A program made the position numbers and the translations under genes. The notes beneath the pieces were generated by a model. The model was not told the DNA's origin. It worked only from the letters and a program-made list of their open reading frames with translations, and searched no databases. A DNA stretch of 63,233 nucleotides, filler included, from Craspedostauros australis (taxonomy: Eukaryota): assembly GCA_030167865.1 (NCBI GenBank). It is 11 parts of 11 records of this genome, joined end to end, with 100 filler letters (N's around TTAATTAATTAA, not from the genome) between each part and the next. Parts side by side here need not be neighbours in the genome. Positions count along the whole stretch, not along the records: positions 49,130 to 55,767 come from JALAGF010004759.1; 10 more parts are not named here. One strand, given 5' to 3'. Of this stretch, positions 2,147 through 61,500 are shown piece after piece (the first letter of the stretch is position 1; each line of letters starts with the position of its first letter).

Positions 2147-2500
2147 AAATAGACTCCATTGCAAGCACTCGACGCCAAGCTCGCCAGTGAGACTACGAGG
2201 TTGTGGGGGCTGCTGCTTGAGTAGATGCTGAGAAGGTAATAGAAGCAAGATATTCCAGAGACAAAAGCAAGGAACCACAAGAGCACATCAGACATCAACT
2301 GCCAATCTTCACTGATAGCCTCCAGAGTAATCATACTCTAGTGTCATTTTTCCCGAATATCTTAGTCATGTGGACGCCGGCTCAATACTCCAGTGCCTCC
2401 CCACCACACTGGCACGTCGTCACCAGATCACTCGGCGAGAGCACAAGGTTCTGTCCTCCTCGACCGACCAGGAAGTATGCTACAAATAAGTACCGTAATT

Positions 2501-2528
2501 GAGTAGAGTAGAGTAGAGTAGAGTAGAG
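2501..2528. repeat. (GAGTA)n microsatellite
   Basis: gagtagagtagagtagagtagagtagag read directly. Confidence 0.9.
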
Positions 2529-3065
2529 ACGGAGCTTGCAAAGATCGTTGAGTGTCTGGCCTCGGTGTACGGATTTCGCACCTGGCCAATCTAGCACTCG
2601 TACAAGTGTATGCGGGAGTATGTATGTATTCTTTGTTTTCGCAAGTCAACACTCGAGTCCTTCACGCGAATGCAGTTTTGGGACACACTAGCAATTTAAA
2701 AGCGATATCTTGGGACAGGTTTGACCCGGGACTGTGCTGGGACACACCGGTCCAGTCGTGTACATCGTGCTTGGTACATCTACTCACCCATGAGATAAGA
2801 TGCCACCAAATACACTGTGCGTGGCCCAACTTGTAAGCTGCACCTCGTCTAGCCTGCAACCCATCAGCAGCTGTCGCATGAATGACATCATGCACAGCAG
2901 CTGGTAGAGCAGCCGGCCACGCAAATAACCTCAGAGGAGAACATCTGTGTCCTCCCCCTCTTTTTCAAGGCGTCCCACCAGCCAACGGAGCTCGCCAACA
3001 CTGATCCAATGAGGTCAGCTCTTGCCCTTGAGGCATGTCCATGCCAAGGTCAATCCCTGTCCTCT

Positions 3066-3239
3066 CAAACAGGGATACGTGTGAAACGGTTAAAACAGGG
3101 TTAACGTGCGAACACGGGCATCGCCCAACTACAGGAGAACAGTGTACTCTCTGACAATCCTACACGACCCTATAACCCTTATAATCTGAATCCTTTGGGT
3201 TTCCAACCCTCAATGACAATCCGTGTGTGTGTTAACTTG
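3066..3239 (+). repeat. 5' LTR (174 bp, CAAAC...ACTTG)
   Basis: Matches 9290-9463 except for 3 transitions. Confidence 0.93.
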
Positions 3240-3260: not shown

Positions 3261-3710
3261 CACACGGGCCATGCGCAAGCACGCGGGGACCGCCTGAAGA
3301 GGCGATGACAATACTGGGACCCCGCTCCGAGGGTGGACCGCCGTGAGCCGGCACAGCTTGGAATCGTGTTGCATCCCCTTTGACAATGATGTTCTGGTAC
3401 ATGTTGGCCGGTGCCAGAGGGATGTACTCCCACCGTTCGCTTTGGCGTGGTGTGGATGGCAAGACAAGGTGGACGCACCGACCGCAGGCCACGCGGAACT
3501 CCTATTGAGACACGCGCTCCTACTGAGTGAAAGACCGTGTGCCTCGTCGCCACATCCGTGCTTCTCAACGTGGGTCGAAAACAACGACACACACTCGAAA
3601 CACTCACACGACGAAACACGCTCTGTCCCAGCGGGGATTTCTGTCACAACCCAACACCTTGTTGCTTTTACTTCTCCCCTTTTGCATCCAACAACCATAC
3701 GACAGCCAAC

Positions 3711-5191
3711 ATGTTGACCAACAGCGACGAAATCTGCAACTACCTTATCAATGTCATGGGTTTCACCAAGGCCGACATCGGCGAGGCACTCAGTACACAA
3801 GGACTGAACACCTTTGACGACCTACTCATGTTCTCCGACAACGACTTGGAGAAGCTCTGCGACCGTATCCGTAAGGGAAGCGGTCTCGTAGCCAACCCAG
3901 CACAGACATCGGGCAATCGCTCTACCACTCCGGCACAGATCAAGGATCCCGGAGTCACTATCGGATGGGTGCATGAACTAAAGCTTCGAAAGCTCCGCTA
4001 TGTGCGCTTCCATTTCGATTGCGTCCAATGTCCTTTCTCCGCTGCCGAAGCACCGATTGAACGTCTCAACGCCCTCTGGTCCCTCTTTGAAGAGGAAGTC
4101 CGTGCAAAGGACTCACCATCGATGGACCTGCCCGATCCCCTCACTCGTGTGGATAACGTCCGCGAGACTCTCGAGGACATCGCGAACTACCTTGAGAATA
4201 CACTCGGTGCCAGCGACATCCCCTTGTCGTACATCATACGCGAAAACCCACTCAAACCTGAAGACAGAATGCCAGCGGTCCATACTCCATTCGGCACACC
4301 ATCCCTCAAAGAGGAACTTATCGACAGGGCTGCCCACGTAGGCCTCAAGCACAAGGCTGACAATGCGGCCGTGTGGCAGGTCATCCGCCACGTGACTCAT
4401 GGTGGACCAGCATGGAACTGGGGCAAGGCAATGAGCAATCCCGAGATGGACACACTGCATACCTGACACTCCAAGAACACTACCGCGGTGACTCCTATCA
4501 AGTCCGAACCAAGGCAACCGCGACCGGCATCATCAACAACACCTTCTACGATGGCAAGTCACGCAACTTCACATTCGAAACATACACCCAACGCTTGAAC
4601 TCTGCCTTCGAAGATATGGCTGCATGTGGTGAACCGCTCGTCGAGAACGCCAAAGTCCGGCACCTGATGCATGGCATTCGTGTGCCACACCTGACCACCG
4701 CGTGTGATGCCATCATGCTCAATGAAAGCATCCGTACCAGCTTCCCCGCCACCGTGAATGCACTCAGCGAAGTGATCGGCCGAAAACAGGCATCGACTCC
4801 CACGCGTCAAATCTCGTCCATGGGACGTAACAGCAACGGCGGCGGTCGTGGCGGTCATTACCGAGCCAACAAACCAGGACGTGGAGGCCAAGGGCGAACC
4901 AAACAGTACAACCCCAACATGGTCATCACTGACCGTCACTATCTCCCTGAAGAGTGGGCAGTCATGTCATCCGCCCAAAAGGCACGCGCATTGGAGTTGC
5001 GCGGCGCACGTGACAAGCGCCGCGGTGTGATGTCTGTTGGCCGGGGCAACCCTCCCAAGCGTCCACGTGAGGATACGGATGGCCATTTTGGGCCTCCAAC
5101 CCCACCAAACCAGAACAACAATGCTGGTACCAACCAAACCGCTGGGATTGGTTCCATGATGTCTCGCCGCAACCAAAACAACCGTTCCTGA
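3711..5191 (+). pseudogene. gag: gag of the CoDi-type element, with a 1-nt frameshift near 4425
   Basis: ORFs 3537-4466 and 4373-5191 join into one Gag (GASDIPLSYIIR, AWNW|GNEQSRDG, YDGKSRNFTFE). The C-terminus is RGG-rich with no CCHC knuckle. Confidence 0.85.
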
Positions 5192-8100
5192 TCGCAACAT
5201 GGAGGGAACCGACAGATCACATCTGTTCATCTCTCCTTGTCATCTGACACGCCGCGAGCGGAGTTCGACTCACACGCTGACACATGTTGCTTTGGCGACA
5301 CAGCATACATTGTGCACACCACGAACCAAACTGTGACTGCAACTCCCTTTCTTGACTCACTCGGGAACATCGACAACGTGCCAATCGTCACAGCAGCGAT
5401 AGCATATGATGATCCCGTAACATACCAAACATTTGTTCTTTTCTTCCCACAATCGATCTACTTTCCTCGTCTTGAGCACCCGTTATTGTGCCCGAATCAG
5501 ATGCGAGCTGCTGGTGTTGTTATTAATGATGTTCCATTACTCATGATCAATGAGGATGAACGGAAACCGGAGGATCACTCGGTGATCTCCTCCCTTAACA
5601 ACCTCCACATCCCGCTCCGACTACGTGGTACCATATCATACTTCCACACACGAAAACCGACAAGACAAGAAGTCCAATCTGACCATGACTGTATCCACAT
5701 TATGATGACACAGGAGTCCACCTGGGACCCAGCACACTGGTCGGCAGGGGACGACGAGGACGCCATCAGAGCGACCATCCAAACCATACAAACGCCCATG
5801 TCGCCAACGATTACACGAGACATCAAAGCAGTCAGTGGGACACAGTCCTCCAATCGAAAGGGGACGATCACGCCAGAAGCACTGGCACGACGCTGGCGTA
5901 TCGGCGTTGACGCGGCTACACGAACACTACAGGCCACAACGCATCTGGCTATGCGCGACTTTCGCAATACAACGGGTACACGACGACTCAATCCATATGC
6001 CATGCAACTGCGTTATCGTCGCCTGAACACACAAGTGTATGCCGACACGATGCACGCGAAAACGAAATCAATCCATGGCAACAAATATGCAATGATATAT
6101 TGCACACCATTCCACTGGGTCCGTGTGTATCCTGTGACGGAACGCAAGAACGCACACCTCACCCTTGATGAGATGTTTCGCGATCACGGCATTCCCCACA
6201 CAATCATACCTGACAACGCAAAGGAGCTCGTGGCTGGCGAGTTCCGACGCAAACTGCACAAGGCGCAAGTGTCTATCCGTCCGATCGAGGCGTACATACA
6301 CAACCAAAACCGTGCAGAGGCGACTATCCGCGAACTGCGTCGCCACTATCGCCGCTTGATGACTTCCACTAACACGCCCGAATACCTGTGGGACTACTGC
6401 TTTGAATATTGCGCGGAGATCCGAAGCCATACAGCGCTATCTGTATACGATCTGCATGGAGAAACACCCGCCACCATCCTATCAGGCGACACAGCCGACA
6501 TCTCACACATTGCCGAATTTGCATGGTTTGACTTTGTCTGGTACATCAACATACAGGATGCCTCCATGAACGTGAAGCAACTCGGGCGTTATTTGGGGCC
6601 AAGCCGTTCTGTCGGCGAGGCCATGTGCTCGTACATACTCACCGCCAGTGGCGTCGTTGTTTCCAAATCCTCTGTCTTGCCTCTTTCACACGATGATACG
6701 AACGACGACGTGCTCAAACAAAAACAAACCGACTTCATGACCAAACTGAGCACCAAATGGAATAAACGCATGGAGGGCATGATGCCAGATGACGACGGCG
6801 ACGAAGTCAACGACACCGCCGCCGACATCGCCTACCTGCAGAACACAGAGCCATTGGAACCCATCGTCGAACCCGAAGACGTCGCCAGCGAGGTGTACAA
6901 TCGCTACATCACAGCGAAGGTCGTTCTGCCGACAGGGGACGAGATGCGATTCGGCACCGTGAAGCGAAGGAAACGAGACGCAGATGGCAACCTCATTGGA
7001 CATTCGCACGACAATCCGATGCTCGACACATCACGCTACGAGGTCGAATTCCTCGACGGACATCAGGAGGCATTCAGTGCCAACCAGATCGCAGAGAACA
7101 TTTATGCTCGTGTCGACGACGATGGATACGAGACCGTCCTCATGGACGAGATCATCGATCACAAACGCTTACCCTCTGTCTCTTTTGCTTCTCACAAAAC
7201 GAAATCCACAAAAGGATGGAAACTGTGCATACGCTGGAAAGATGGATCAACCTCATGGATACACTTGCGTGACGCGAAGGAGGCCGACCCCGTCCGTGTG
7301 GCTGAATACGCGGAGGCCAATCTCCTTGTCCACAAACCAGCATTCAAGTGGTGGGTGCCACACACCCTCCGCAAGCGGCAGCGCATCATCATGGCAACCA
7401 AACGGAGACAAGTGCGCAAACAAGAGATGTTTGGTGTGGCATTGCCAACCTCCGTGCGACATGCACTTGCTATCGATGCGGAATCGGGCACTGACATGTG
7501 GCGTAAGGCGATCGAGAAAGGGATGAAAGCCGTGCGCCCTGCCTTCGATATCAAAGAGACCGACACGCCCAATCCCGTTGGACATCAATACATGGAGTGC
7601 CACATGATCTTCGCGGTGAAGGTCGACCTCACACGAAAAGCGCGATTGGTGGCTGGTGGCCACATGACAGAGGCACCAGCGGCCATCACCTATGCGAGTG
7701 TGGTGTCACGCGAGAGCGTGCGCATCGCATTCATGCTTGCTGCACTCAACGACTGCAACATACTGGCAGCCGACGTCCAAAACGCATACCTGAACCCACC
7801 GTGTAGAGAACGAATATACACGCAATGCGGACCCGAGTTCGGGTCCGATCAAGGCAAGATTGCCGTCATCTGTCGGGCCTTGTACGGCCTGAAATCCAGC
7901 GGAGCCGCTTGGCGAGCGCATCTGGCTGAGACACTGCGCGATTCGATGGGATACACATCCTGCCGCGCAGACAGCGACGTCTGGATGAAACCAGCTGTGG
8001 CGAGCGATGGGTCAGAGTATTATAAATACGTGCTTGTGTATACAGACGACATCCTTGCGGTGTCCAAACAACCCCAGCGCATCCTAGATGCAATTGGCTC

Positions 8101-9118
8101 ACACTTCTTCCTCAAACCGAGTTCCATCAGCCCTCCTACTACTTACCTTGGATCCACTATCGCGCCATACCACATTGACTCTGATGCAACACGTCCCAAA
8201 TGGAGCATGGGATCACGTGCCTACATACGAGCCGCCATCAAGATCGTGACGAAATAGCTCACAGACCGACAAGGGCGCCTCAAGACAAAGGCACCCAGTG
8301 TGATACCGAACAGCTACCGACCTGAATTGGATGCAACACCGTTGTGCGATGCAGAAGAGACGCAATTCTACCAGCAACTGATCGGCATCCTGCGCTGGAC
8401 CGTTGAGCTGGGTCGCATTGACATCTGCTGTGAAACATCCATGATGTCCTCATACTGTGCTGCGCCACGTACGGGTCACCTGCGAACGCTCTTCCACATG
8501 TTTGCCTATCTGAACTCACACGACCGTTCTCGTCTTGTCTTTGATGATGCATACGTTGACAAACCTGCTGTGATACAACCGGAGTGGGGCGACTTCTACG
8601 CCGACGCCCACGAACAGATACCGAACGACATGCCACCACCGCGTGGAAAGGAGGTCCAGATGACCTGCTTTGTTGACGTTGACCATGCTGGCGATCGGGT
8701 GACGCGTCGATCGCGCACCGGAGTCCTACTGCATCTGAACTCATCGCCTATCCTATGGCACAGCAAGAAACAAAACAGCATCGAAACATCCACATTCGGC
8801 AGCGAGTTCACCGCACTCAAGGTGGCGACGGAGATCGTCATCGGTATGCGCTACAAGTTGCGAATGATGGGCGTCCCTTTGGACGGCCCTACGGACATGC
8901 GCGTCGACAACCAGAGCGTTGTGTACAACGCCTCACTCCCCGCGTCACAGCTACGAAAGAAAGCCAACGCCATTGCATATCATTTCGTCCGAGAAAGCAT
9001 CGCAGCCGGTGTGATGACCGTCTCATACGAGCCATCAGAAACCAACCTCGCCGATATGCTCACCAAACCACAGTCAGGGCCAAGACGAACCACTCAAGCA
9101 CAATGTGTTTTATTCTAA
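5192..9118 (+). pseudogene. pol: pol (PR-IN-chromodomain-like-RT-RNase H) with an in-frame TAG at 8255-8257
   Basis: ORFs 5237-8257 and 8300-9118 are in the same frame and all catalytic motifs are recognisable. Confidence 0.92.
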
Positions 9119-30930: not shown

Positions 30931-31636
30931 TTTGGGTCGTGATTCCGCCACCAAATATTCTGGATGATGGCGCGCAAGTGTGACTGATGCATACACATCC
31001 GAGTACACACATTCCGACAAATATGCGAACGCCCAACGAGGGTGGCGAACAAAGCATCAGAATCAGGAGATAACGATGGCTACACAACTGCACGGGAGAC
31101 GATGTACGCTCCAGTGGCAACAGACAGGCCCAACTTCGAAACAGACGGGTCAATTATCAACAACAACGTCGCAGGCATGAGGATCGGTACTTCCCAATGA
31201 AGGATGAGAGCGATCGACTTCATTGCTGCGAATCAGGATAATAATGATGATGAGAGAGAGAGCGCGCGCGCGACGGCGAGAGATTCGAGCACATCAACAC
31301 CGAAATGATGCTGAGTCTACGTACGCCTGAGGAGTGCTAGGATCATGTGGATCTTGACGAGCGGAAGCAACGAGACGACGCTATCAACAAAGAGTCCAAT
31401 GACATGGCCAGAAAAGGAGGATATGGCAGAAGATCAAGAAGGACCAGATGCCGAGAGACCGGCAGTGCGTGAAGATCAAATGGGTATTCAAGGAGAAGAG
31501 GAATGGCGTATTCCGCGCCAGACTTGTTGCATGCGGATACTCGCAGATCGCAGGAGTCGACCTCTCAATGCAACGCGCACCATGATACACGACGCAACCT
31601 GCCGCGCAATGCTCACAATGAGGATGCTACTGAACA

Positions 31637-32783
31637 TTGGGCAGCATCACTATCGACCTTGAGACAGCATTCCTACACAGAGACCTCGAAGAGGAGACCT
31701 ACATGCTTTGCCAGAAGGGCGTGGAGCATGATGATAACGAATGCCTGTTGCTCAAGAAGGTGATCTACGGACTCGTAGAGCGCGCAAGACAATGGAACAA
31801 GAAGCTGGTCGACATCCTATTCAAATTGGGATTCAGACAGAGCAGAACGGATCCATGCCTCCTGATTCGGGATCAGGAAGGGAGACTACTGCTGATCGGA
31901 ACCTACGTTGACGACTGCCTATGCATCGGAGATGAACAGGGGTTGAAGAGACTCGTAGGGGATATCAAGGCAGAGCGGTTTGGAATCAAGGTGGAAAAGG
32001 ATCTCGAAGACTACCTCAGTTGCAAGATCAGATTCAACCATGACGAGACCAACTGCTGGGTGAACCAACCGCACATCATCAACAACATCGTCAGCACTTT
32101 CAAGGACGATGTGATGAAGCTGCAACGATACGGAACACCAGGGACGCCAGGACAAGGCATCCAGAGAGAGAGAGAGTGATTCACCAAAGGTCGACAAGCA
32201 ACGACACAGCAGCTACCGAAGTGGAGTAGGCATGCTGCTGTACCTGGTGAAGCACTCACGACCTGACATCGCAAACGCAGTGCGTGAACTGACCAAGGTG
32301 TTGGATGGACCAACAGCCGCAGCATACAAGGATATGCTGAGGGTCATGGAGTTCGTGTCAGATACGAGAGAGTATGGACTGAGGATGAGACCGAGTCCAT
32401 TGGAGAACGATGCATGGAAGATTGTGTACACCGACAGCAAGTTCGCTGGTGACAAGAACAATCGCATCAGCGTGGGAGGGCATGTCGTCCTGCTACAAGG
32501 AGTGCCAATCATCTGGAGATTGAAGACACATGGATCTACAGATGCGACGGTCGACAATATGGGAGCAATCTACATTGCTTCCAATCCATCGACATCAACG
32601 AGAACGAGACACATCGACATACGACATCAATTCATTCGAGAACTGATTGCGAACAGAGTGGCTAGAGCTCGGTTCGTACGCTCAGAGGACAGAATCGCAG
32701 ACAGGGTTCACGAAGAACACCAAGAAGAGATATGTGACAGACACAAGAGCAATATCATCCAGCCGCAGTTGACAATGGACTGA
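31637..32783 (+). pseudogene. pol: Copia RT-RNase H, degenerate (lineage B)
   Basis: IDLETAFL, IYGL..AR.W, YVDD, SRPDIA.AV, TRHIDIRH.FIRE, with frameshifts. Confidence 0.9.
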
Positions 32784-49129: not shown

Positions 49130-49213
49130 CAAGTAATGAAATAGCAAGCGAACGACTATCAACCAACACCACCTTCCACGATCGTAAGTTACCGTGCGCG
49201 GAACTTGCCAACA
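49130..49213 (+). mobile_element. LTR family A, 3' end
   Basis: CAAGTAATGAAATAGC...GGAACTTGCCAACA. Confidence 0.85.
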
Positions 49214-50725: not shown

Positions 50726-51852
50726 ACTATCCCTTCATGACCCAGGCCCAATGCGTTCATTATATCCTTTTTTTTCGGCCCGTGTTAAATTTTGAACGCG
50801 TTTGTCCTACCGCAGCCTACGTAAACAACTAAATCGGTACCTTCATTACTGTGCTATCGTTGGGAACCACTGAAATTATGTTTTACCTTACTTCAACGCC
50901 TTCCATGGTAGATACCCCAATTTTCTTTGCAGATATGGAATCCGCATAAGCTGGAGATCTTTTTGACCGTCTTTGGAGTGTTTCTTTCTAGGCCAGTAAT
51001 TTTATTTGTGGCCTTCAAGTAGCAGCACTTCCCATGATGGGGCTTCCAGCAAAACGGACTATCGTACTAACGGACAACATTGAAGGTACATTTACGGACA
51101 ATAGTAGTGAATGCGAATTATCTAGTCGTGGTGAGGACGTCGTCTCCGACGGTTTCAAATTGTCAATACATGATTGAAATGTCTCTCAGATGTAGTGAAA
51201 CAAAGCGTGCCCTATTTAAAGCACGTTTTGAAAAGGTGCCCTATTTCAAGGCATGTATGGACACCATACAGATACGAGTCGCGACGAGAATGTCAAGGAC
51301 ATGACAACCATGACTAATAAAGTCGCACTCACGACCATTAGTGTTCTTCCCTTCACGAACAGTATGTCCGACTCTCAATGTCCGGCAGTTTACCGGAAGC
51401 CCCTGTGTGTGATCTTCGTACACGCCCATGGACGTTTCCTCGCCCAACACTGGTCGAGTGCTGCTCATCTTTCTGTTCGTTCTTGGAGATGATAACCTCC
51501 GGAAGAGGATGGCAATGTATCCCAGAAAGCAGAAGACAACGACAAGTGTTGCGAGTTTGATATGCAGAATAACCAATGCGATTTCGCCCACAATCTGCGT
51601 GTTGCTGAACAGGTTCGCGCCAGTCCCGCTAGCCAAAAAACTATTCATGGGTGGTTCAGGCTCTGGTTGCGACACAATCATCCTAACAACCCCACCGAAA
51701 GCGACACATGGCTGGATCGCCCATCTCTCAAACTTTCTTCAGGTATGAAGAAAGTGATATGTTACATGTAAACGTTGACGTTAAAATGAAGATTCCATGA
51801 AAAAATTTTGCTATTTGGATTCACTATAGGCCCTGGGTCATGAAGGGATAGT
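50726..51852. mobile_element. Non-autonomous TIR DNA transposon (MITE-like, 1127 bp)
   Basis: Perfect 21-bp inverted repeats ACTATCCCTTCATGACCCAGG (50726-50746) and CCTGGGTCATGAAGGGATAGT (51832-51852), extendable to ~27 bp. AT-rich interior. TSD unclear (TA on the right only). Confidence 0.85.
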
Positions 51853-51897: not shown

Positions 51898-52423
51898 TCA
51901 CTTCTTCATGCATTCTGCCTGCTCTCTCTTCGATTGCAAATGATTGTTGAACTTCTGCGCCTTGGCTTCTTGGTAGATGTGCTGCTTGAACTGCACCAAA
52001 TCGAACGCAGCATACTCTGGTCTGCTAGCCTTGAGTTCGGCTGGTGTCATTTCCAAATGCTTCGATTGCTTGATATCTTGGACGAGCAAGGGGCTTCGCG
52101 GGAGACAGGTACATGACGGGCTTCCCACGGATGTTGCGTCGTTGCTGAGGATGCAACGTTCGGTCATGTTCAAGCGCACGCAATTCAGTGGCAGAGCGGC
52201 CACGATTCTTGCTCACGCGTTTTTCGAATTGCTTGAAGTATCTCGCGAACACAGCTTGCGTCATCCCTGGAACCTTGAATTGCTCCAGGACGCGGTAGTG
52301 CGCCCACGCCTCGTCCACAGACACATCCACCTCGTGGAAGATGCCGCCAATGTCGAAGTCGTTCTTCATCATTGCGCCAGCTGGATTGCAGCGCCAGGTG
52401 AATTTCGGCGTGTTGGATGCCAT
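51898..52423 (-). pseudogene. Small basic helical protein of unknown function, with one frameshift near 52090
   Basis: ORFs 52025-52423 and 51898-52203 join: ALEHDRTLHP..N.RGKPV..SPAKPL|LVQDI..KHL.MTP.EL..SRPEY..F....F..HIYQE. Confidence 0.6.
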
Positions 52424-53051
52424 CTTTCCAGCTTGCCCTTCATGTGACGATTATGATTTCAAATGCATTGCAATTTAATAGTGTCTCCATTGGTTCCTTG
52501 CCCATAGCAGTATCAGTACTGGCGCCAATGATGGCGCGCACGCAGGTGCTCTAGAGTGACGCTTAGAACAATACAATTTGAAGCAGTCGTGTGTTTGTTC
52601 ACACCATCACACAGCCACAAAGCTGGACCCAATGCTCCATCTTTCCCTCCCCGTTCACAATCTCACAACAGAAAGCTGGCTCATGTGTTTCTTGCCACGG
52701 CAGTCTTGGTCATGTGCAGCAACCTGCTGAATAGTTTTGCACATACATGCCGAGATCATTGTACAGAAACCACAATAGCTCTGATTTGGTTGGAATGTCT
52801 GGTGAACAATCCTCCCAATTTCATGGTCCTTCTTCCGTTCAGACTTGGCGGGCATCCGGTCTGAAATGCAGCATTGGTTCCCTCGCTGATGGTTTTTGTC
52901 CGACGGAATCGCAAGCTGTCGCGAGCACTCGTATGATGTGAAGCTGGAACCACGCGATGATTCGTTCACAACCTCTGCGGAAAGTAACAACACGGCCAAC
53001 TCCTCAACAGCAGCGCTTCCAAACAACATCATCTCATAATCTCCACCGATA

Positions 53052-54404
53052 ATGCAAGACACCAGCTTCAGCAAGAACGATCGTAAGTGTCTGGCCGAAA
53101 GCATCGCTCGAGCCGTTGAGAAGATTGGCAAGAGTCGACAGCAAGTTAGATTCTCAAGAGAAGTTTGTGACGACGACAACGTTCTGTTTGGTGCACCAGG
53201 ATCCAATCGTCGCGTGCAGAGCAGTCGGTTGTTCAGCGGGCTCAAGAAGCGGACGATCACGAGCTACATGTCGCTCCTTCGCAAATCGCAAATCGAAGTC
53301 GGCAAAGGGACTCTCGCCGAGCTCAAGGAGCATGAGAAGAAGACAAAGGAGAAGGACTCGGACAGTTCGGATGCCTCGGATGCCTCGGATCACTCAGATG
53401 GCTTGGGCAGTTCAGATGGGTCGCACACGGATGATGTCGGTGACAGTGTTGATGATCTTGTTGACGCGGTTAATGGCATCTCACTACAACCGCCCGTTGC
53501 TCCTTCTTCTGTGAACAAAACCTCCGTCCGAGCTCCGCCATCAACAGCTGCCATTCACAAACCACCACTCCAACGCAACACTGTACACATGAATCTCGAC
53601 GGGATGTCCACCCCAAGCAAGGATCAGCTCTTGCCAAACCGGGTGGAGACGCCACAGCGCGCCTTCGGACCGCCATCGTTCGCTTCGCCGGCCCCTTCCT
53701 TTGCTTCCCCTGGCATGTCTGCCCGTGGACTTGGGGAGGCCAATGTTGGAAACGATGCGCTCGCTTCTCTTTTTGCCAATGCCCAAGACGGAACAAAAGA
53801 GAACCCGTACAAAATCCCGGTTAATACCAGGTTCCCCGAACGCAACGGTCCCTTTCTCATTGACCACGTCAATGACGTTGCTGTGAAGAATGCGAACTTC
53901 TCGGGTTATCACATTCGGGTGCCGACTTCCCTCCACGACATCAAGGAGTGGACGGCAACAATCCCTGTATCCGCCCCCAGCCTCTCCGAGCGTGCAATCA
54001 TGATTCGCGGCCCAAGCACCTCCGGCTGGCATCGCGACGCAGAGCGCTACTACGCTGGGGATGAAGATTGCGGAACGGCAAAAAACGCCCTGGGTTCTAC
54101 GATCGCAAGCATCCAGGCCTCCCAAGAACGTCAGTTCTCGTACTGGCTTGTGATTTTTCCGATCAACGTCCGGTTCGATCACACCGTGTTCCCACGGCTC
54201 ATTGACAACACCATCGTGACCCACTTGTCTCTCCAGCGTGCCAGTGAAGGCACAACAGAGCTTGGGCGTGTGACCTACGGAGCTTCTGTGTATTGGAAGG
54301 TGGCTTTGCAAGGCGGCCGCTTGAATTCAGTGCCCAAACCGACCGCAATGGCAAAGTACCTCGAGTTGTTTGACGAAGAGGATGGCAATGGCGCTGGCGC
54401 ATGA
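53052..54404 (+). CDS. Hypothetical 450-aa protein (basic N-domain, S/D/P-rich linker, globular C-domain)
   Basis: Uninterrupted ATG-TGA ORF; the C-domain starts DGTKENPYKIPVNTRFPERN. Confidence 0.75.
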   Translation: MQDTSFSKNDRKCLAESIARAVEKIGKSRQQVRFSREVCDDDNVLFGAPGSNRRVQSSRLFSGLKKRTITSYMSLLRKSQIEVGKGTLAELKEHEKKTKEKDSDSSDASDASDHSDGLGSSDGSHTDDVGDSVDDLVDAVNGISLQPPVAPSSVNKTSVRAPPSTAAIHKPPLQRNTVHMNLDGMSTPSKDQLLPNRVETPQRAFGPPSFASPAPSFASPGMSARGLGEANVGNDALASLFANAQDGTKENPYKIPVNTRFPERNGPFLIDHVNDVAVKNANFSGYHIRVPTSLHDIKEWTATIPVSAPSLSERAIMIRGPSTSGWHRDAERYYAGDEDCGTAKNALGSTIASIQASQERQFSYWLVIFPINVRFDHTVFPRLIDNTIVTHLSLQRASEGTTELGRVTYGASVYWKVALQGGRLNSVPKPTAMAKYLELFDEEDGNGAGA

Positions 54405-54581
54405 GGGCAGCTCAGACGAGTAGCACAGCAAGAGGAAGGAGCAACTGCCATGAGCAGTCAGCACAATCGTAACAATAATAACTAGTGAACAAGTGAAGAG
54501 AAATGGTGCTTGGTCTGTTGCCTATTTTAGTCTCCTATTGACATGGTGGGGTTGGTGTTTGATGCGCTTTGCTGTTGCCCG

Positions 54582-55127
54582 TCACCCCATCTTGACTTCG
54601 CTCACATCAACCACACGGATGTTTGCGTCATCGCCAAGCTCCTTGCGAATATCTGTGGCCTCGTGGATCTTCTGCAGGAGAATTGTATTGAAGCTTAGAA
54701 GATCCCCGCTACGGAGAGTCATGCGGCTGTTCCCCTCCACAACACCGAGATTGCAGCAGTCGCACAACGCCATCGCGAGCTTCTTAACCATTTTGTTGAT
54801 GTCAGGCTGTTGTTGCATGATTGCCTCGGCTCTGTTTGCTGGGATCTTGCGGCGCTTGACGTTCTCCTTGTTGATGGCAGTCGCCTTCTGCTCGCCATCG
54901 TGGAGCTGCAAGACGACTGGAAGGCGAGTCTTGGTTGGCTTCTTGTCCACGTTCACCCACCCAATCAGACCCTTGTACTTGCCGCCAATGACGGAAATTG
55001 GTTTGCCTTTCATCACCATCCTGCTCTGTAATTGGTTGATTTGTGATGGCATCGTGCGTTCCTCGACAGTAACATGGGCAACAGCAACAACGGGCGCAAT
55101 CACGACGATCTGTGTCATGCCTACCAC
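54582..55127 (-). CDS. Hypothetical small protein with a KOW/SH3-like motif; start codon uncertain
   Basis: KGKPISVIGGKYKGLIGWV is KOW-like and is followed by a helical segment. Confidence 0.6.
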   Translation of the reverse strand: MVGMTQIVVIAPVVAVAHVTVEERTMPSQINQLQSRMVMKGKPISVIGGKYKGLIGWVNVDKKPTKTRLPVVLQLHDGEQKATAINKENVKRRKIPANRAEAIMQQQPDINKMVKKLAMALCDCCNLGVVEGNSRMTLRSGDLLSFNTILLQKIHEATDIRKELGDDANIRVVDVSEVKMG

Positions 55128-55407
55128 TTGGCGACAATGGGTTCATCGAAACCAACGAGCAACCGTCGCAGAATGGCATCTCCCGTGTTTGCTACACGTC
55201 GCCAAACTACCTTGCTCTATCCCTGTCATAGTGCATACATGTAGTTGAATGCTTGCACGCTGCTATTTCCCGTCTTTCCGTTATTTTGGACTGATGTGTT
55301 GCCAGCGGCCGGCGCATGCCTAACACGCTCGCTAATTCAGAGCCAACATCATCATCACCGCTATCAGCAGCAGCAACAACAAGACGAACATCAACGTCGC
55401 AGCACGG

Positions 55408-55442
<35 letters not shown>

Positions 55443-55464
55443 GATTGCGACTACGACTACGACG
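55408..55464. repeat. (CAGCAA)n and (CGACTA)n microsatellites
   Basis: Read directly. Confidence 0.85.
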
Positions 55465-55573
55465 GAAACAAACATGGCAGCAACAGTCAATGCACCAATC
55501 ATAAGAACAACAACTCCACCAATTCACAGGATCAATCACGATAGTCAACATCATCTCATCTATTCTACGCATC

Positions 55574-55767
55574 ATGTTCCTCAGCGCAAACACCGTCCTC
55601 ACGCTTGGGCTCGAGTTGGTGGGGATCCAGGACACGAAGTGGAAGGCCATTGAAGCCCTGACGGTTCTGTTCCGTCAGCATTATGGTTCCAACCCACTGG
55701 ACGTCGCAGAGATTTGGTATGACTTGTGTCACACAACCATCCGTGCGGCAGCCATCGACGCACAAGA
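55574..55767 (+). CDS. Probable N-terminus of a PIF/Harbinger-ISL2EU-like DDE transposase, cut by the linker
   Basis: GL.LVG..FRQHYGSNP..VAEIWYDL..T.I..A.I resembles the N-terminus of diatom DDE_Tnp_4-type proteins as recalled. No catalytic residues are visible. Confidence 0.55.
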
Positions 55768-55867
55768 NNNNNNNNNNNNNNNNNNNNNNNNNNNNNNNNN
55801 NNNNNNNNNNNTTAATTAATTAANNNNNNNNNNNNNNNNNNNNNNNNNNNNNNNNNNNNNNNNNNNN
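55768..55867. other. Artificial 100-nt contig linker
   Basis: N44-TTAATTAATTAA-N44. Confidence 0.97.
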
Positions 55868-56223
55868 AGTTCCAAGCATCCAAAGGCAACCATCGAGATG
55901 ACCGGAGAGAGGAACTGAGATGAAGTGGGACCAGCGAGGTGACAGGAGACCGAAGGAGAGGTACCTACAGGTCTACGAGTATGAACTTGACGAATGTAGG
56001 TGCTCTCCAATCCTCAGCCAAGCAANCGATGAACCACGATGAAAGCAAGATGAAGATGCAGACGAAAGGAGCCAAGCTAAAGGGTGTAACCTCGGGTGGC
56101 TACTGCAGATCATGCTTATTGTGAATTGGAATCGAAAGGAGATGAGCATGTTGTGCTCACAGTTCTAAAACGGTACAGACTGATAACAGATTAGTCTACT
56201 ACTATATCCCCGGATTTCCAACA
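55868..56223 (+). repeat. LTR family B 3' part, abutting pol of the same lineage
   Basis: CTCACAGTTCTAAAACGGTACAG...CCCCGGATTTCCAACA. Confidence 0.8.
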
Positions 56224-57744
56224 CATAACGACGAGGAAGATCGGAGCGAATCCAATCATGAGGATGATGAGATCATACCATCCAGCGACGAAGCCGACGA
56301 TGACACAGGCGTCACCCCTCCGAACACACCAGCGAGGTCTACACATGGTACACCATCCAGACCTCCACCAAGCAAACCAAATAAGCGTGGCATAGCTAGA
56401 AAGGAGAGGATCCGACGTCACGAAGCACGAGGCAGGAAGGGAGAAGCTAATCCCAAGTCAACTACAGGGAAGAATATTCCCAGAGCTCTGCGTGAGCTCG
56501 CAGACTTCAACGAACGAGGTCGAAAGGAAGAGGGCTATGAGAGCGATTCATCATCCCATGAGGCGAGTGACGAACTCAGCGATGAGGTGATCGACGACTC
56601 CAACAACGAAACCACAGATGACGAAGAAATCGAAGACGAAGATGAAGAGATCGAAATCACTCACCATAGCACAACAGGACTATATGGGATGAACGCAATC
56701 ATCACCGAAGTACCAGCGATCGACATTGGATTGTCGATGCAAGACAAGAACAAGGAACCAGAGAAGCACATCGAACCAACGACATTCGATGGAGCCTTCA
56801 ATCATCCAGACCCTATTCATCGAAAGGGATATCGAGCAGCCATCAAGAAGGAATTCGACTCCATGGATACACGAAAGGTATACAGCAAGATCAAACAAGA
56901 CGCCATCCCACGCGGCCGCAGATGCTGCAAATGCAAATGGGTCTTCAAGCTGAAACGCGACGGCACACATCGAGCACGACTCGTTGCATGTGGCTACTCA
57001 CAAGTCGCAGGAGTGGACTTCCAAGAGCACTACTCACCCGTCATCCATGACGTGACCTATTGGGTCATGATGGTGATCATGCTGATCAAGAAGATGGACT
57101 GCGCACTCGTCAATGTCGTAACGGCATTCCTACACGGAGACCTCGACGAGGAGATCTACATGAACTGTCCCAACGGGATGAATCATCAACCAGACGAAGC
57201 CCTGACCCTACACAAGCCAATCTACGGGCTTGTGTAGAGCGCCAGGCAATGGTTCAAGATGTTGGTATCGACCCTCAAGAATATCAACTTCGAACAGAGC
57301 GCAGCAGACCCGTGCCTGTTNNNNNNNNNNNNNNNNNNNNNNNNNNNNNNNNNNNNNNNNNNNNNNNNNNNNNNNNNNNNNNNNNNNNNNNNNNNNNNNN
57401 NNNNNNNNNNNNNNNNNNNNNNNNNNNNNNNNNNNNNNNNNNNNNNNNNNNNNNNNGGACTCGGAGACTACCTCAGCTGCAACATTGAGTTGAACCACGA
57501 CAAGACCAGAGCGACATTGCGTCAACCACATCTCATCCGACACCTCATCGAAGAGTTCGGAACCAAGGTTGAGAAGATGCAGCGCTACGGGACACCGGGA
57601 ACCCCGGGTCAAATCATCGTACGACCGTCCGAAGATAACGGATTGCAGAAGGTCGGACCAGAAGAACATGCCGAATACCGCCGAGGCGTCGGTATGCTAC
57701 TCTTCCTCATCAAACACTCGCGACCAGATATCGCGAACCCTGTG
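56224..57744 (+). pseudogene. pol: Copia lineage B IN-RT spacer and RT, paralog of 44060-44774
   Basis: KWVFKLK, RARLVACGYSQ, TAFLHGDL, IYGL(stop)SARQW, SRPDIA. Confidence 0.92.
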
Positions 57745-58593: not shown

Positions 58594-61500
58594 AATAAAT
58601 AAATAACTCATAGATTAGTCGGTCTTATGCTGCGACTGCGTCGGCGACGCTTTTCTCCGCCTCCTTTCAACTCCAGGTGGAACACCTGGAGGGGGTACGG
58701 AATCTGAAGTATGGGTGCTCTGTACTTGTTTGCTTGTGTTGATTTCGTTCTCATTTGTTGGGCTCGGTCCTGCGGTGCAATTGGAACCCCGTCTTCGAGT
58801 GGACTTGCATCCACTTGAGCAGAGGGCCTGTGGCTAGGTTGGTTCGCAGCAGTCTCGCCGCCTGCTCCATCCACAGCGCCACGCTTGCAGCGTCGGACTC
58901 GCATCCTGGACGTACTGCCAGCACACGCTTATGGACGGCATTGTCGGCTTGGAGCATGCTTGCCAGGTCTTCCGACCTGTCGCGCATGGCTTCCACCATC
59001 TCCTGCTCGGCTGACTCGGCTTCGTTGAACATGTCATGGTTCCGAAGCCGCCATTGTTCCCACGCTATTCTCCATATGCGTCGGGCCAGCTCCGCCCCCC
59101 ACTTTAGGGGCGATCGTCGCGATTCTTGGCTTGCCAGAAACACCGCTTGTAACTCCACCCACTTTGTGCCGATCAGCCCGCGCGAAAGAGACACGTTCCC
59201 TATNCGCCGCTGCTGCTCGATTGCCTCGGTCAGCGCTTTGCTCGCAGTCATTGCCTGAAGATGCACTGTGCCTGCCAGTTGGCTTCNCAGCATGGCTGTT
59301 ATGGCTGCNGTGACCTGCGGGCTGGTTGGATATTTGGCCATCCACATGCGGATTCCCTTCAGGTGCTTGGCAGTCGCTTCCGCCCTGTGCTCGGCGGGGC
59401 AAGACCAGATATGAGCCTGGACTTCTTCAGCGTTGCAACTGGGGCAGTTACTGGACGCCCGTAGCCCCCACTGTTTCATTCGTTTTCCCACTGCTGCTTC
59501 GCCGGTGACCAATTTGAACGTCAGCATTGCGTTGGCATGATCGAGGCCGGTAATTGCCCTTCCCAGTGCCGGCCAACTGACTTCGTCTGCTCGGTCCACC
59601 ACTTGTCTGTTTCTCAATATCTCGAATGTTGCTTTGGTCAGACCTTCCTCGGCTATGTGTTCATAACGCACCGAGGTTATCTTCATACGCCTGGAAAGGC
59701 ATACTTCCTCGCCTTCGATGATATCGTCATAGGGCGTGGTGCCACCGCTTACTCGCCGCTGGGCCCCGGCCAATTTATCAGCTTCCACGTTCATTTTTGC
59801 CCACTCATCGAGCTCGTGCCACTGCTTGTCGTCATCTTGGTGCCCTTTCACGTGCCGTCCTTCAATGCTAATTGGTAGCTGCAGCATCTTGTTTCGCGTA
59901 GCCCGCATTAGGTCAGCATCGGAGGACCTGGGTGTCAAGTGCCAGGTAGGATCCAGCGCCTTGAGCGCACCGACATTGTCGCATCCGACCACTGCTCGCC
60001 CCGACGCAACTCCCTGGGAGTCGCATATGCATTGGATCGCCACCATAAGGCTGTACAAACCTGATAACTCCGCCCTGTGGGACTGCATTGTGTCGCTGCT
60101 GCGTGGCGTCCTGCAGGTTAACCACAGTTTGGCCATTTGGTCGTGGGCCTCGCCGGTGATCACTGCTCCTGCCGCTCCTAGCCCATCGGCTACCGAACCG
60201 TCGCTGCATGCGGTGAGTGTTCCGGCCTTGATGGCGTCTCCGAGCACTGTCTCGTCTCCCTCGATGTCCCATGCCTCGATCGCCCACGCTGACGAGTCCG
60301 AGAGATGCTGGAACTTCGCCGCGAGGTCTTGAACTGGCGGTGGCGGCTGGGAGGCGATACCTGGGGAGCTTCCTGTAACTGCCAAGTTTGGTCCGCTGGT
60401 GTAGCCATCCACTGGTTGCGTGCCCTGGGCGGTGGTGCCGACGGTTCGCGCGTACTCCCTCCTGCGTCCCCTGCGTGGGACTCGTCGGTAATATACTCCC
60501 GCCTGGTCGATGGATGTGATTCTGTCTGCTTCCGGATCATACATGAATTGGGGGGTTTGAGAGCCGTAGTTCCGCCATTCTCCGAGCGGTGGGGACAACG
60601 TTCTAGATGGCCCCCTGGTGGATGGGAAGCATCGGCCGACTGCCTGTGACCACTCCTTCCACTGCCGTGGCGATGGTTCTCCGACTCGCGGCCATCTCAT
60701 GCTGCTATTCCGGAGAGGCGTTGGCCCCGGAGAGACGGAGGCCGCTAGCACTTCGTCGCCTTGGACATTCGCTATGTCGGATACCCACAGCACCTGTTTC
60801 GCCATTCGGCACAGGTTGACTGCTTGGAGCTCCGCCTTGGTCAGGTTGAGAGAGAGTATGCGCTCCATGATGAACGTGTCGCCTTCCCTTGGTGGTTTCA
60901 GCGGCGACGTTTCGAACCGAAGGGTGATCTCAACATGGTTGAGCTCGGCCCATACTGCTTTCATCCACGAGTCTGGCAATACTCCTTGCCACTGGCTCAG
61001 CGTCTTAGTGAGCACTTGGTCCATGCCGGCTTGTAGTTCCAGTGTGCCCATGGCGTTGCGCATCAGCTTTCCTGTGATCGTGCTCTGGTTCCAATGCTTG
61101 GTGATTTCCTCGACGTGTCGTGTGACCTGCGTATAATATATGTGCGGTACACCCAATCCGAATTGCCGCCGCGGACCAAATACTAGTGCTCGAGACACGT
61201 TTCGTTGGACTCCTGTCGCCGGGAGCGCTGATTGTAGCATGGGTCGCATGATGCTTTCGGACTCTGCTTTCGTAAATGTTGCGCTTGCCAGGGGATACTC
61301 CAGGGTTTTCATGATGGTAGCGTGCAGGGCTACCTTTGCCTGCCCTCGGAGCAGCCCGCCTCGTCGTATTGCGTCAGCCCATTTCCGAGCTTTCTGCGTG
61401 TACATTTCCGCGTTGTCGTGTTGCACTCCGTCATGGCGCACCATTACTCCAAGAGCCTTTCTGGCTTGATCGACTGGCAGTCTGAGCAGTGTAGATCGCT

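Follow-up and report, generated by a model that had tools for sequence, protein, structure and literature searches.

The Harbinger superfamily is the textbook case of cut-and-paste transposition in which the transposase works together with one required helper protein. All six PHIS groups covered by the published description contain at most two ORFs (PMC4482050), whereas each of the two loci analyzed here combines four genes that have homologues in the other. The presence of Harbinger elements in stramenopiles is illustrated by the ANT-type Harbingers reported in Ectocarpus (PMC12477816). A search of the published literature, as distinct from Repbase, revealed no Harbinger-type element with the partner genes described below. 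With moderate confidence, we consider the locus in this assembly of Craspedostauros australis to represent a DNA transposon lineage of the PIF/Harbinger superfamily (PHIS, DDE_Tnp_4) that carries three conserved accessory genes.

The window, that is, the whole stretch of 63,233 nt that was analyzed, is made up of 11 small contigs, with a linker of the form N44-TTAATTAATTAA-N44 at each of the 10 junctions. The cassette is located on a 6.6 kb contig (49130-55767) and comprises the genes for a basic protein (− strand), a 450-aa protein (+ strand), and a KOW-like protein (− strand), followed by a truncated transposase gene (+ strand). The earlier note had described compact genes of alternating orientation without introns, and this arrangement was recovered with all ORFs in place: the orientations alternate, the intergenic gaps are 628, 177, and 446-521 nt, and introns are not required. 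The spacer between the divergent basic and 450-aa genes (52424..53051, 628 nt by the ORF coordinates) is a candidate site for a promoter, and CAG/CAA-rich simple sequence is present in the spacer (55128..55573) from which the KOW-like and transposase genes diverge. Apart from the basic protein gene, every visible ORF of the cassette is intact. The transposase gene continues beyond position 55767, the contig end, which is marked by an assembly linker (55768..55867) that is not biology. Because the contig stops at this position and the contig placed after the linker, which carries a Copia-type RT, is unrelated to the cassette, the transposase ORF cannot be extended within the window. Fragments of Copia-type RTs are present on several of the unplaced contigs of the window.

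The same four gene families are linked on a metagenome contig (L002), where a 450-like (+), a KOW-like (−), a transposase (+), and a basic protein gene (−) are found within 4.8 kb. Across the four genes, the two loci show 23-47% identity, with E-values from 1e-11 to 1e-22. Because each of the ORFs in the window has a homologue in L002, they are, judged by sequence conservation, real genes rather than chance ORFs. The linkage in L002 also led us to reject chance adjacency of unrelated genes, and the prospect, raised in the earlier note, that the genes might be single-copy and unlinked elsewhere did not materialize. Linkage of all four genes is documented at two independent loci only, the window and L002; a further contig, L001, matches L002 with 100% identity over 1422 nt and represents the same element. 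Given the difference in GC content between the cassette contig (0.51) and L002 (0.36) and the identity of 23-47%, the retained linkage does not reflect a chromosome segment inherited from a recent common ancestor.

The 450-aa, KOW-like, and transposase genes form a block (450> <KOW Tnp>) whose order and orientation do not differ between the two loci, and the basic protein gene is located on opposite sides of it. The gene order of the window is <basic 450> <KOW Tnp> and that of L002 is 450> <KOW Tnp> <basic, so that one is a circular permutation of the other with every orientation retained. The KOW-like and transposase genes are arranged head-to-head, with a spacer of 239 nt in L002 and 446-521 nt in the window. 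As to the expected presence of multiple copies in conserved order, the three-gene block bore out the conserved order, but a second copy of the cassette genes was not detected within the window by protein-versus-window comparisons; when 270 proteins were compared with the window, all 269 HSPs fell on the two genes of the + strand. A scan of genome contigs recovered, from 45 pattern matches, one further locus (L003), which contains a distant transposase relative (39% identity) alone among ordinary-looking genes. This transposase gene is single-copy in its 4.8-Mb genome bin, and a 450-like gene was not found in the same bin. Scans of viral contigs with the transposase alignment and the 450-like alignment produced 63 and 22 pattern matches, respectively, none of which was a relative. 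The cassette proteins of the window themselves had no close relatives in the collections searched.

The transposase gene is represented in the window by its first 64 codons (55574..55767, + strand), at which point the contig ends and truncates it. The 64-aa fragment is 43% identical to a 324-aa protein of L002 over 51 aa (E 3e-14) and up to 56% identical to other family members, and 105 HSPs from proteins of the transposase family land on 55574-55767; among 84 candidate longer proteins with which the fragment was compared directly, none was significant. The 324-aa protein passes the Pfam gathering score for PF13359 (26.2 bits vs. 24.8), and this family is matched by all 18 aligned members of the transposase family, the sole additional Pfam match being PF01609 in 2 of them. 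A PDB sequence search with the transposase profile was empty. Within the DDE_Tnp_4 region, the acidic residues D157/D160, D239, and E277 are invariant and would constitute the D-D-E triad. At E<=1e-3, 223 of 808 candidate proteins were recognized as relatives, a lower bound for the size of the family. The comparisons support the view, already expressed in the earlier note, that the fragment is the N-terminus of a Harbinger-type (DDE_Tnp_4) transposase, the catalytic domain of which is absent from the window; the DDE domain expected of the extended ORF is indeed carried by the extended homologues.

The 450-aa protein (53052..54404, + strand) matches its L002 homologue with an E-value of 3e-22 across 412 aa and a further protein, P0001, with 32% identity over 196 aa. 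In the AF2 model (mean pLDDT 76.7, both domains above 90), a helical N-terminal domain (residues 8-107) and an alpha/beta C-terminal domain (231-441) are connected by a disordered linker rich in Ser, Asp, and Pro (111-230). The 450-like family includes 609 representatives of 50%-identity clusters at E<=1e-3, 103 of them at E<=1e-30; a word-based search with the window protein yielded a single match among 8000 scored candidates. Pfam returned nothing except low-complexity matches for all 92 members of the 450-like family that were compared, Foldseek searches of PDB and BFVD with the model returned no structure at E<=1e-3, and an ESM Atlas search gave nothing usable. With VIA-align, the C-terminal domain could be aligned to the beta-sandwich of HSP20 / CS (p23-like) proteins over 73-121 residues, with Z-scores of 5.0-6.8 that fall below the value of about 8 that the tool terms 'common'; examples are 3w1z_A (Z 6.8, rmsd 6.1, 106 aligned residues) and 2o30_B (Z 5.8, rmsd 2.5, 73 aligned residues). 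The protein is confidently modeled with two domains, and the model has no clear counterpart among known folds.

The KOW-like small basic protein (54582..55127, − strand) may start at GTG 55127, ATG 55118, or ATG 55052, its length being 181 aa from the GTG and 156 aa from the last ATG. It is 28% identical to a 153-aa protein of L002 over 94 aa (E 2e-11), and the motif G-x-Y-x-G-x-x-G is conserved in both orthologues. A Pfam comparison with KOW5_SPT5 gave an E-value of 0.11 and 12.4 bits, compared to a cut-off of 27 bits, a PDB sequence search was empty, and hhalign indicated no relationship to the 450-like family. A match was obtained to PHROG 7007 (MotB-like), positions 2-55 of which match residues 11-63 of the 156-aa form (E 5e-5); the L002 orthologue had no match among the PHROGs. 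For phage T4 MotB, the description in PMC7827196 includes a predicted KOW domain at the N-terminus. The likeness is confined to this short N-terminal motif, and the KOW-like protein differs from MotB in that it has no OB-fold part. The resemblance is one of shared domain type, not of common ancestry with the phage protein.

The gene for the basic helical protein (51898..52423, − strand) is split between two frames that overlap, 52025-52423 and 51898-52203. Each of them matches a 271-aa protein of L002, the first with 31% identity over 104 aa (E 1e-13) and the second with 47% identity over 66 aa (E 5e-15), and they are collinear on this single continuous ORF. Because both frames match it in order, the gene contains, as far as can be read from the sequence, a frameshift of 1 bp, located within a CCCC run close to 52095, which is either a true lesion or a sequencing error. 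The small basic protein gene of the earlier note does exist, but not as a single intact ORF. The protein has a pI of 8.9-10.1 and was without a match in Pfam (window and L002 versions), in a PDB sequence search (E<=10), and in a Foldseek search of PDB with its model; an ESM Atlas search gave nothing usable, and hhalign revealed no relationship to the 450-like family. An internal repeat suspected by eye found no support (BLASTP E 0.92). In the AF2 model, which is of low confidence (pLDDT 62.7), residues 105-175 align weakly to the three-helix folds of homeodomain, SANT, SLIDE, and GT-1 proteins, with Z-scores of 3.9-5.2 that are in the noise range for helical models. A complex prediction for the L002 transposase and the L002 basic protein, run without alignments and without controls, had a score of 0.00, which is no verdict for or against an interaction.

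The earlier note had proposed to test for co-occurrence of the four genes between TIRs and TSDs. Co-occurrence was found in L002, but no TIRs or TSDs bounding the cassette were found on the contig, and the right side of the cassette lies off the contig. The contig does contain an inverted repeat with arms of 27 nt at 50726..50752 and 51826..51852, 1073 nt apart and 93% complementary (21 nt exact, blastn-short E 9e-6). The right arm, 45 nt past the stop of the basic protein gene, is a candidate, though unproven, terminus of the element; equally, the repeat could be a separate small element.

Taken together, a copy of a DNA transposon with three accessory genes, incomplete on its right side, is the best explanation for the cassette in the window. 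The families are large (223 transposases and 609 450-like representatives) and therefore fit a mobile element. The window copy itself may be defective because its basic protein gene is frameshifted. In the mechanism that we propose, the compact transposase of about 300-320 aa would cut and paste the element and would depend on the accessory proteins for functions that it lacks itself. The basic helical protein would probably play the role of the second Harbinger ORF, namely in nuclear import and in binding to the ends. The 450-aa protein, whose N-domain is winged-helix-like and whose C-domain is a beta-sandwich, is probably a DNA- or protein-binding adaptor, and a probable target of the KOW-like protein is nucleic acid or the transcription machinery. 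A more far-reaching version, to which we give somewhat less than even weight, is that the cassette represents an undescribed, abundant PHIS group of environmental, probably marine, protists. Such an element would be an autonomous four-protein machine, in which a minimal DDE transposase works with the basic helical protein, the KOW-like protein, and a protein of 400-470 aa, all three partners being needed for movement or for evasion of host silencing. The 400-470-aa family would then combine a winged-helix-like head with a beta-sandwich tail that has no clear match among solved folds, and the circular permutation of the genes might be the trace of an intermediate that is circular or tandem.

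Harbinger-derived genes can also be domesticated, as in the case of HARBI1 and NAIF1, and the cassette could be an immobile cluster in which the host has retained a Harbinger-derived transposase together with its partners. We regard this as unlikely. It would accord with the lack of detected termini and of a second copy within the window, with the visible ORFs being intact except for that of the basic protein, and with the solitary, single-copy transposase gene among ordinary-looking genes in L003. However, the linkage of four eukaryotic host genes across a divergence of this extent, in both protein identity and GC content, would be unusual, and the transposase and 450-like families are very large and diverse. 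Moreover, the copy is found on a small unplaced contig amid repeat fragments, and one of its genes is frameshifted.

The cassette could, furthermore, be a composite in which an ordinary two-gene Harbinger-like element (transposase and basic protein) repeatedly carries, or lies next to, a separate module of the 450-aa and KOW-like genes, which would be passenger cargo outside the transposition machinery. The 450-aa and KOW-like genes indeed form a convergent pair of their own in both loci, and the transposase and basic protein genes of L002 are arranged tail-to-tail, as in the two-gene Harbingers described in PMC12477816. Nevertheless, the short spacer shared by the KOW-like and transposase genes in both loci connects the two supposed parts. 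In addition, the leaders of the 450-aa gene (53024..53054, + strand) and the transposase gene (55546..55576, + strand) in the window have an exact 14-mer in common, in the same register upstream of the ATG, and the transposase family does not exceed the 450-like family in size. We regard this origin as improbable. The circular permutation and the compact, intronless genes would also accord with a small circular element, be it an episome or virus-like, that encodes a DDE transposase and is present as an integrated or tandemly repeated copy. This origin is very improbable, given that a replication or capsid gene was not found, Pfam, PHROGs, and NCBIfam being otherwise empty, that neither the two viral-contig scans nor BFVD (at E<=1e-3) provided a relative, and that tandem copies or simple rearrangement explain the permutation equally well.

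If the preferred reading, a transposon lineage with three accessory genes, is true, the picture of one helper per transposase would be widened by a lineage that has maintained three, all of unknown families, over a deep divergence. It would also assign a likely role to a large uncharacterized family (609 cluster representatives, no Pfam match) and, in genome annotation, attribute to transposons a class of 'orphan' genes found in protist assemblies and metagenomes. The cassette would then offer a compact, intronless four-gene system for testing what helpers contribute to transposition in eukaryotes, be it end recognition, nuclear import, or the coupling to chromatin or transcription.

Among the known systems, the cassette is closest to PIF/Harbinger elements, with which it shares a DDE_Tnp_4-type transposase, a compact size of a few kb, and a second gene for a basic, helical protein, which in L002 is located tail-to-tail with the transposase gene. 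It differs in having four conserved genes instead of two and a basic protein without a Myb/SANT/trihelix match in Pfam; the TIRs and TWA target-site duplications of PIF/Harbinger elements were not found around the cassette within the contig. As anticipated, none of the three partners matches Myb/SANT or YqaJ in Pfam. The assertion that this is not the Harbinger architecture is possibly too strong because of the tail-to-tail position of the basic protein gene in L002 and the low-confidence, weakly SANT/homeodomain-like model of its product. The same tail-to-tail position of the second gene is described for the Ectocarpus Harbingers (PMC12477816). ISL2EU elements also belong to the PHIS superfamily and combine a DDE transposase with a partner other than a Myb-like gene, but, as characterized in PMC4482050, their transposase carries a THAP domain and their partner is a YqaJ exonuclease; by Pfam, neither THAP in the 18 transposases nor YqaJ in the accessory proteins of the two loci was found. 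Pangu, compared here by its description, is similar in that its transposase has the DDE motif only and its second ORF is without a recognized motif (Han et al., 2015; PMC4482050). According to the same source, Pangu elements have two ORFs and an average length of about 3.5 kb, compared to the four linked genes of the cassette.

The compact group of genes described in the earlier note was confirmed on the contig at 49130–55767 (6638 nt, GC 0.51). It consists of a gene for a basic protein, which is located at 51898–52423 (−) and falls into two frames, a 450-codon ORF (53052–54404, +), a small KOW-like ORF (54582–55127, −; possible starts at 55127, 55118, and 55052), and an open transposase frame (55574–55767, +) of 64 codons that is cut off by the contig end. 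For all four genes of the window, the Pfam search yielded no significant match. The window is no single chromosome stretch: it contains 11 small contigs and 10 linkers (N44-TTAATTAATTAA-N44) spanning 19568–61739, so that features on either side of a linker are not physically linked. Beyond the linker at 55768–55867 follows an unrelated contig with a fragment of a Copia-type reverse transcriptase; therefore, the transposase frame cannot be extended within the window. Two further ORFs, at 53541–54311 (−, 256 aa) and 54493–55248 (+, 251 aa), run antisense across the 450-aa gene and the KOW-like gene, respectively. Neither was matched by a stored homologue, so both probably represent shadow frames.

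The other contigs of the window harbor three Copia-type RVT_2 fragments (5192–8254, 31634–32176, and 56146–57234, all +; E 6.5e-16 to 1.8e-21); the window is repeat-rich. Another contig includes an ORF of 897 codons with a few N (58751–61444, −), which had no Pfam match at E ≤ 1e-3 and whose product, by eye, resembles that of a retroelement.

In a word-based search, the 450-aa protein retrieved a single relative, P0001 (32% identity across the C-terminal 196 residues, E 3e-22). When both proteins were used to scan metagenome contigs, 132 pattern matches led to two loci, L001 and L002. These loci overlap by 1422 nt at 100% identity and are thus a single element seen twice, that is, one independent locus. 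L002 (4791 nt, GC 0.36) contains a 450-like gene (2–1210, +), a KOW-like gene (1465–1929, −), a transposase gene (2168–3142, +; 324 aa), and a basic gene (3301–4119, −; 271 aa). The identities between the window and L002 are 23% over 412 aa for the 450-aa protein (E 3e-22), 28% over 94 aa for the KOW-like protein (E 2e-11), 43% over 51 aa for the 64-aa transposase fragment (E 3e-14), and 31% and 47% for the two frames of the basic protein (E 1e-13 and 5e-15). The two frames match residues 9–112 and then 102–167 of the single L002 ORF; they are collinear on it, and therefore a 1-bp frameshift is placed within a stretch of four C at about 52095, reflecting either a mutation or a sequencing error. 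The 450-aa, KOW-like, and transposase genes form a block (+, −, +) whose order and orientations agree between the two loci. The orientation of the basic gene is likewise kept, but this gene is located to the left of this block in the window and to the right in L002. The linkage, kept in these two independent loci despite low identities and different base composition, suggests genes that move together as a functional unit rather than conservation of a stretch of chromosome. The multi-gene cassette suggested in the note, whose transposase is of the DDE_Tnp_4 type, is real and conserved, which supports the interpretation given there in part.

The class of the transposase is evident from the 324-aa protein of L002, which passes the Pfam gathering score for PF13359 (DDE_Tnp_4; 26.2 bits vs 24.8, E 7e-6). 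Of 808 candidates in a search with this protein, 223 reached E ≤ 1e-3. The 120 relatives listed share 40–99% identity, are mostly 300–320 aa long, mostly have PF13359, and come nearly all from metagenome-type sources. In an alignment of the L002 protein with 17 of these 120, hand-picked across the identity range, all 18 members matched PF13359, and D157, D160, D239, and E277 were invariant; judging from the known DDE_Tnp_4 pattern, these residues are likely to include the catalytic triad. The 64 residues encoded in the window, which had been guessed to be a transposase N-terminus, indeed match the N-termini of this family, with up to 56% identity and 105 HSPs from stored transposases. The catalytic domain of this copy is not contained in the window, and a search with the fragment for longer proteins (84 candidates) did not recover the full-length protein of the source organism.

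The 450-aa protein belongs to a large family: a three-sequence profile matched 609 of 1.84 billion cluster representatives at E ≤ 1e-3, 362 at E ≤ 1e-10, and 103 at E ≤ 1e-30. Ninety-two members were aligned (the window, L001, and 90 of the 150 listed matches, with most short fragments left out), and Pfam detected no real domain in them, only seven low-complexity families in one or two members each. His and Cys positions conserved in the family are not kept in the window and L001 proteins, and neither a metal site nor an enzyme role is proposed. The AlphaFold model predicts two confident domains, a helical N-domain (8–107, pLDDT 92–98) and an alpha/beta C-domain (231–441, pLDDT mostly >90), connected by a linker predicted to be disordered (111–230, pLDDT <50). 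Foldseek searches of PDB and BFVD returned nothing at E ≤ 1e-3. In a VIA-align comparison with 48,161 chains, the N-domain weakly matched PadR/TrpR-type winged helix-turn-helix folds (Z 4.3–4.7) and the C-domain HSP20/CS-type beta-sandwiches (Z 5.0–6.8); these scores are in the common-arrangement range of the tool, so the matches are leads rather than assignments.

No relatedness was detectable among the three partner proteins. The 156-aa form of the KOW-like protein matched PHROG 7007, a MotB-like regulator (E 5e-5, residues 11–63 vs profile positions 2–55), and Pfam KOW5_SPT5 only at E 0.11; its L002 orthologue did not match PHROG 7007. A KOW domain is predicted for the MotB N-terminus (PMC7827196). 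Both orthologues have a G-x-Y-x-G-x-x-G motif, and the designation "KOW-like" appears reasonable but not proven. The basic protein (pI ~10), which in L002 has a long tail rich in Lys and Glu, found nothing in the Pfam, PDB sequence, and Atlas searches. Its model, built from a three-row alignment, is poor (pLDDT 62.7); the best part (105–175) aligned weakly with homeodomain, SANT, SLIDE, and GT-1 three-helix DNA-binding folds, at Z 3.9–5.2, values that do not rise above the noise expected of helical models.

On the cassette contig, a single inverted repeat stands out; it comprises 27 nt (50726–50752/51826–51852; 25/27 complementary, 21 nt exact, blastn-short E 9e-6). Its right arm is located 45 nt past the stop of the basic gene, the arms enclose 1073 nt without a recognisable gene, and on both sides similarity ends at 27 nt. 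Either the cassette begins on its left with 51826–51852 and the other arm is the end of an unrelated neighbouring element, or the arms bound a separate, possibly small non-autonomous, element of 1.1 kb. If they were the facing ends of two elements, GGCC-like ends would face outward, possibly similar to PIF-type termini. No clean target-site duplication was readable at this repeat on the cassette contig. An exact 14-mer is common to the leaders of the 450-aa (53024–53037) and transposase (55546–55559) genes, in register and 28 nt upstream of both ATGs; in L001/L002, the corresponding genes share a CACAAA before the ATG, too short to be given weight. Such leaders hint at common expression signals. 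Near the left end of the contig (49475–49574), a 20-nt unit is repeated about five times in tandem; the copies, each with the palindrome GTGCATTTAATGCAC, could be protein-binding sites.

Taken together, we consider it fairly probable that the cassette is a new PIF/Harbinger-superfamily variant with four genes and putative mobility. Several points speak against a transposon: the ends are not proven, no second cassette copy was found within the window, the linkage comes from only two independent loci, and L003 carries a more remote relative of the transposase (39% identity, in two frames) that lies alone among ordinary-looking genes. This 442-kb eukaryote-like contig, filed under a bacterial MAG labelled Desulfobacteraceae, is probably misbinned; long ORFs at 1–20911 resemble, by eye, a ubiquitin hydrolase, an LRR protein, and a desaturase. 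The 4.8-Mb bin contains a single transposase locus but lacks a 450-like gene; transposase relatives can thus exist without the partners. A domesticated cluster, for which the missing second copy and the unproven ends would speak, is unlikely. A composite of a two-gene element and cargo is unlikely as well. A circular or virus-like element, of which the placement of the basic gene, formally a circular permutation, is reminiscent, is very unlikely.

The four-gene variant of PIF/Harbinger favored here can be compared with the described groups of the PHIS superfamily, which includes PIF/Harbinger and ISL2EU. No description of a four-gene element of this kind was found in the published papers searched. 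According to the sections of the PHIS survey used here (Han et al. 2015, PMC4482050), PIF/Harbinger, NuwaI, and NuwaII combine a transposase with a Myb/SANT protein, ISL2EU a THAP-containing transposase with a YqaJ protein, and Pangu a DDE-only transposase with an ORF without a known motif, whereas Spy has a single ORF; none of these groups is described there with more than two ORFs. The transposase of the cassette, and possibly its basic partner, resemble those of Harbinger-type elements, but the cassette departs from the pattern of one or two ORFs, and Pfam detected in its partners none of the partner domains described in these sections. By description only, and as far as these sections portray it, the closest likeness is Pangu, which likewise combines a minimal transposase with a motif-less partner.
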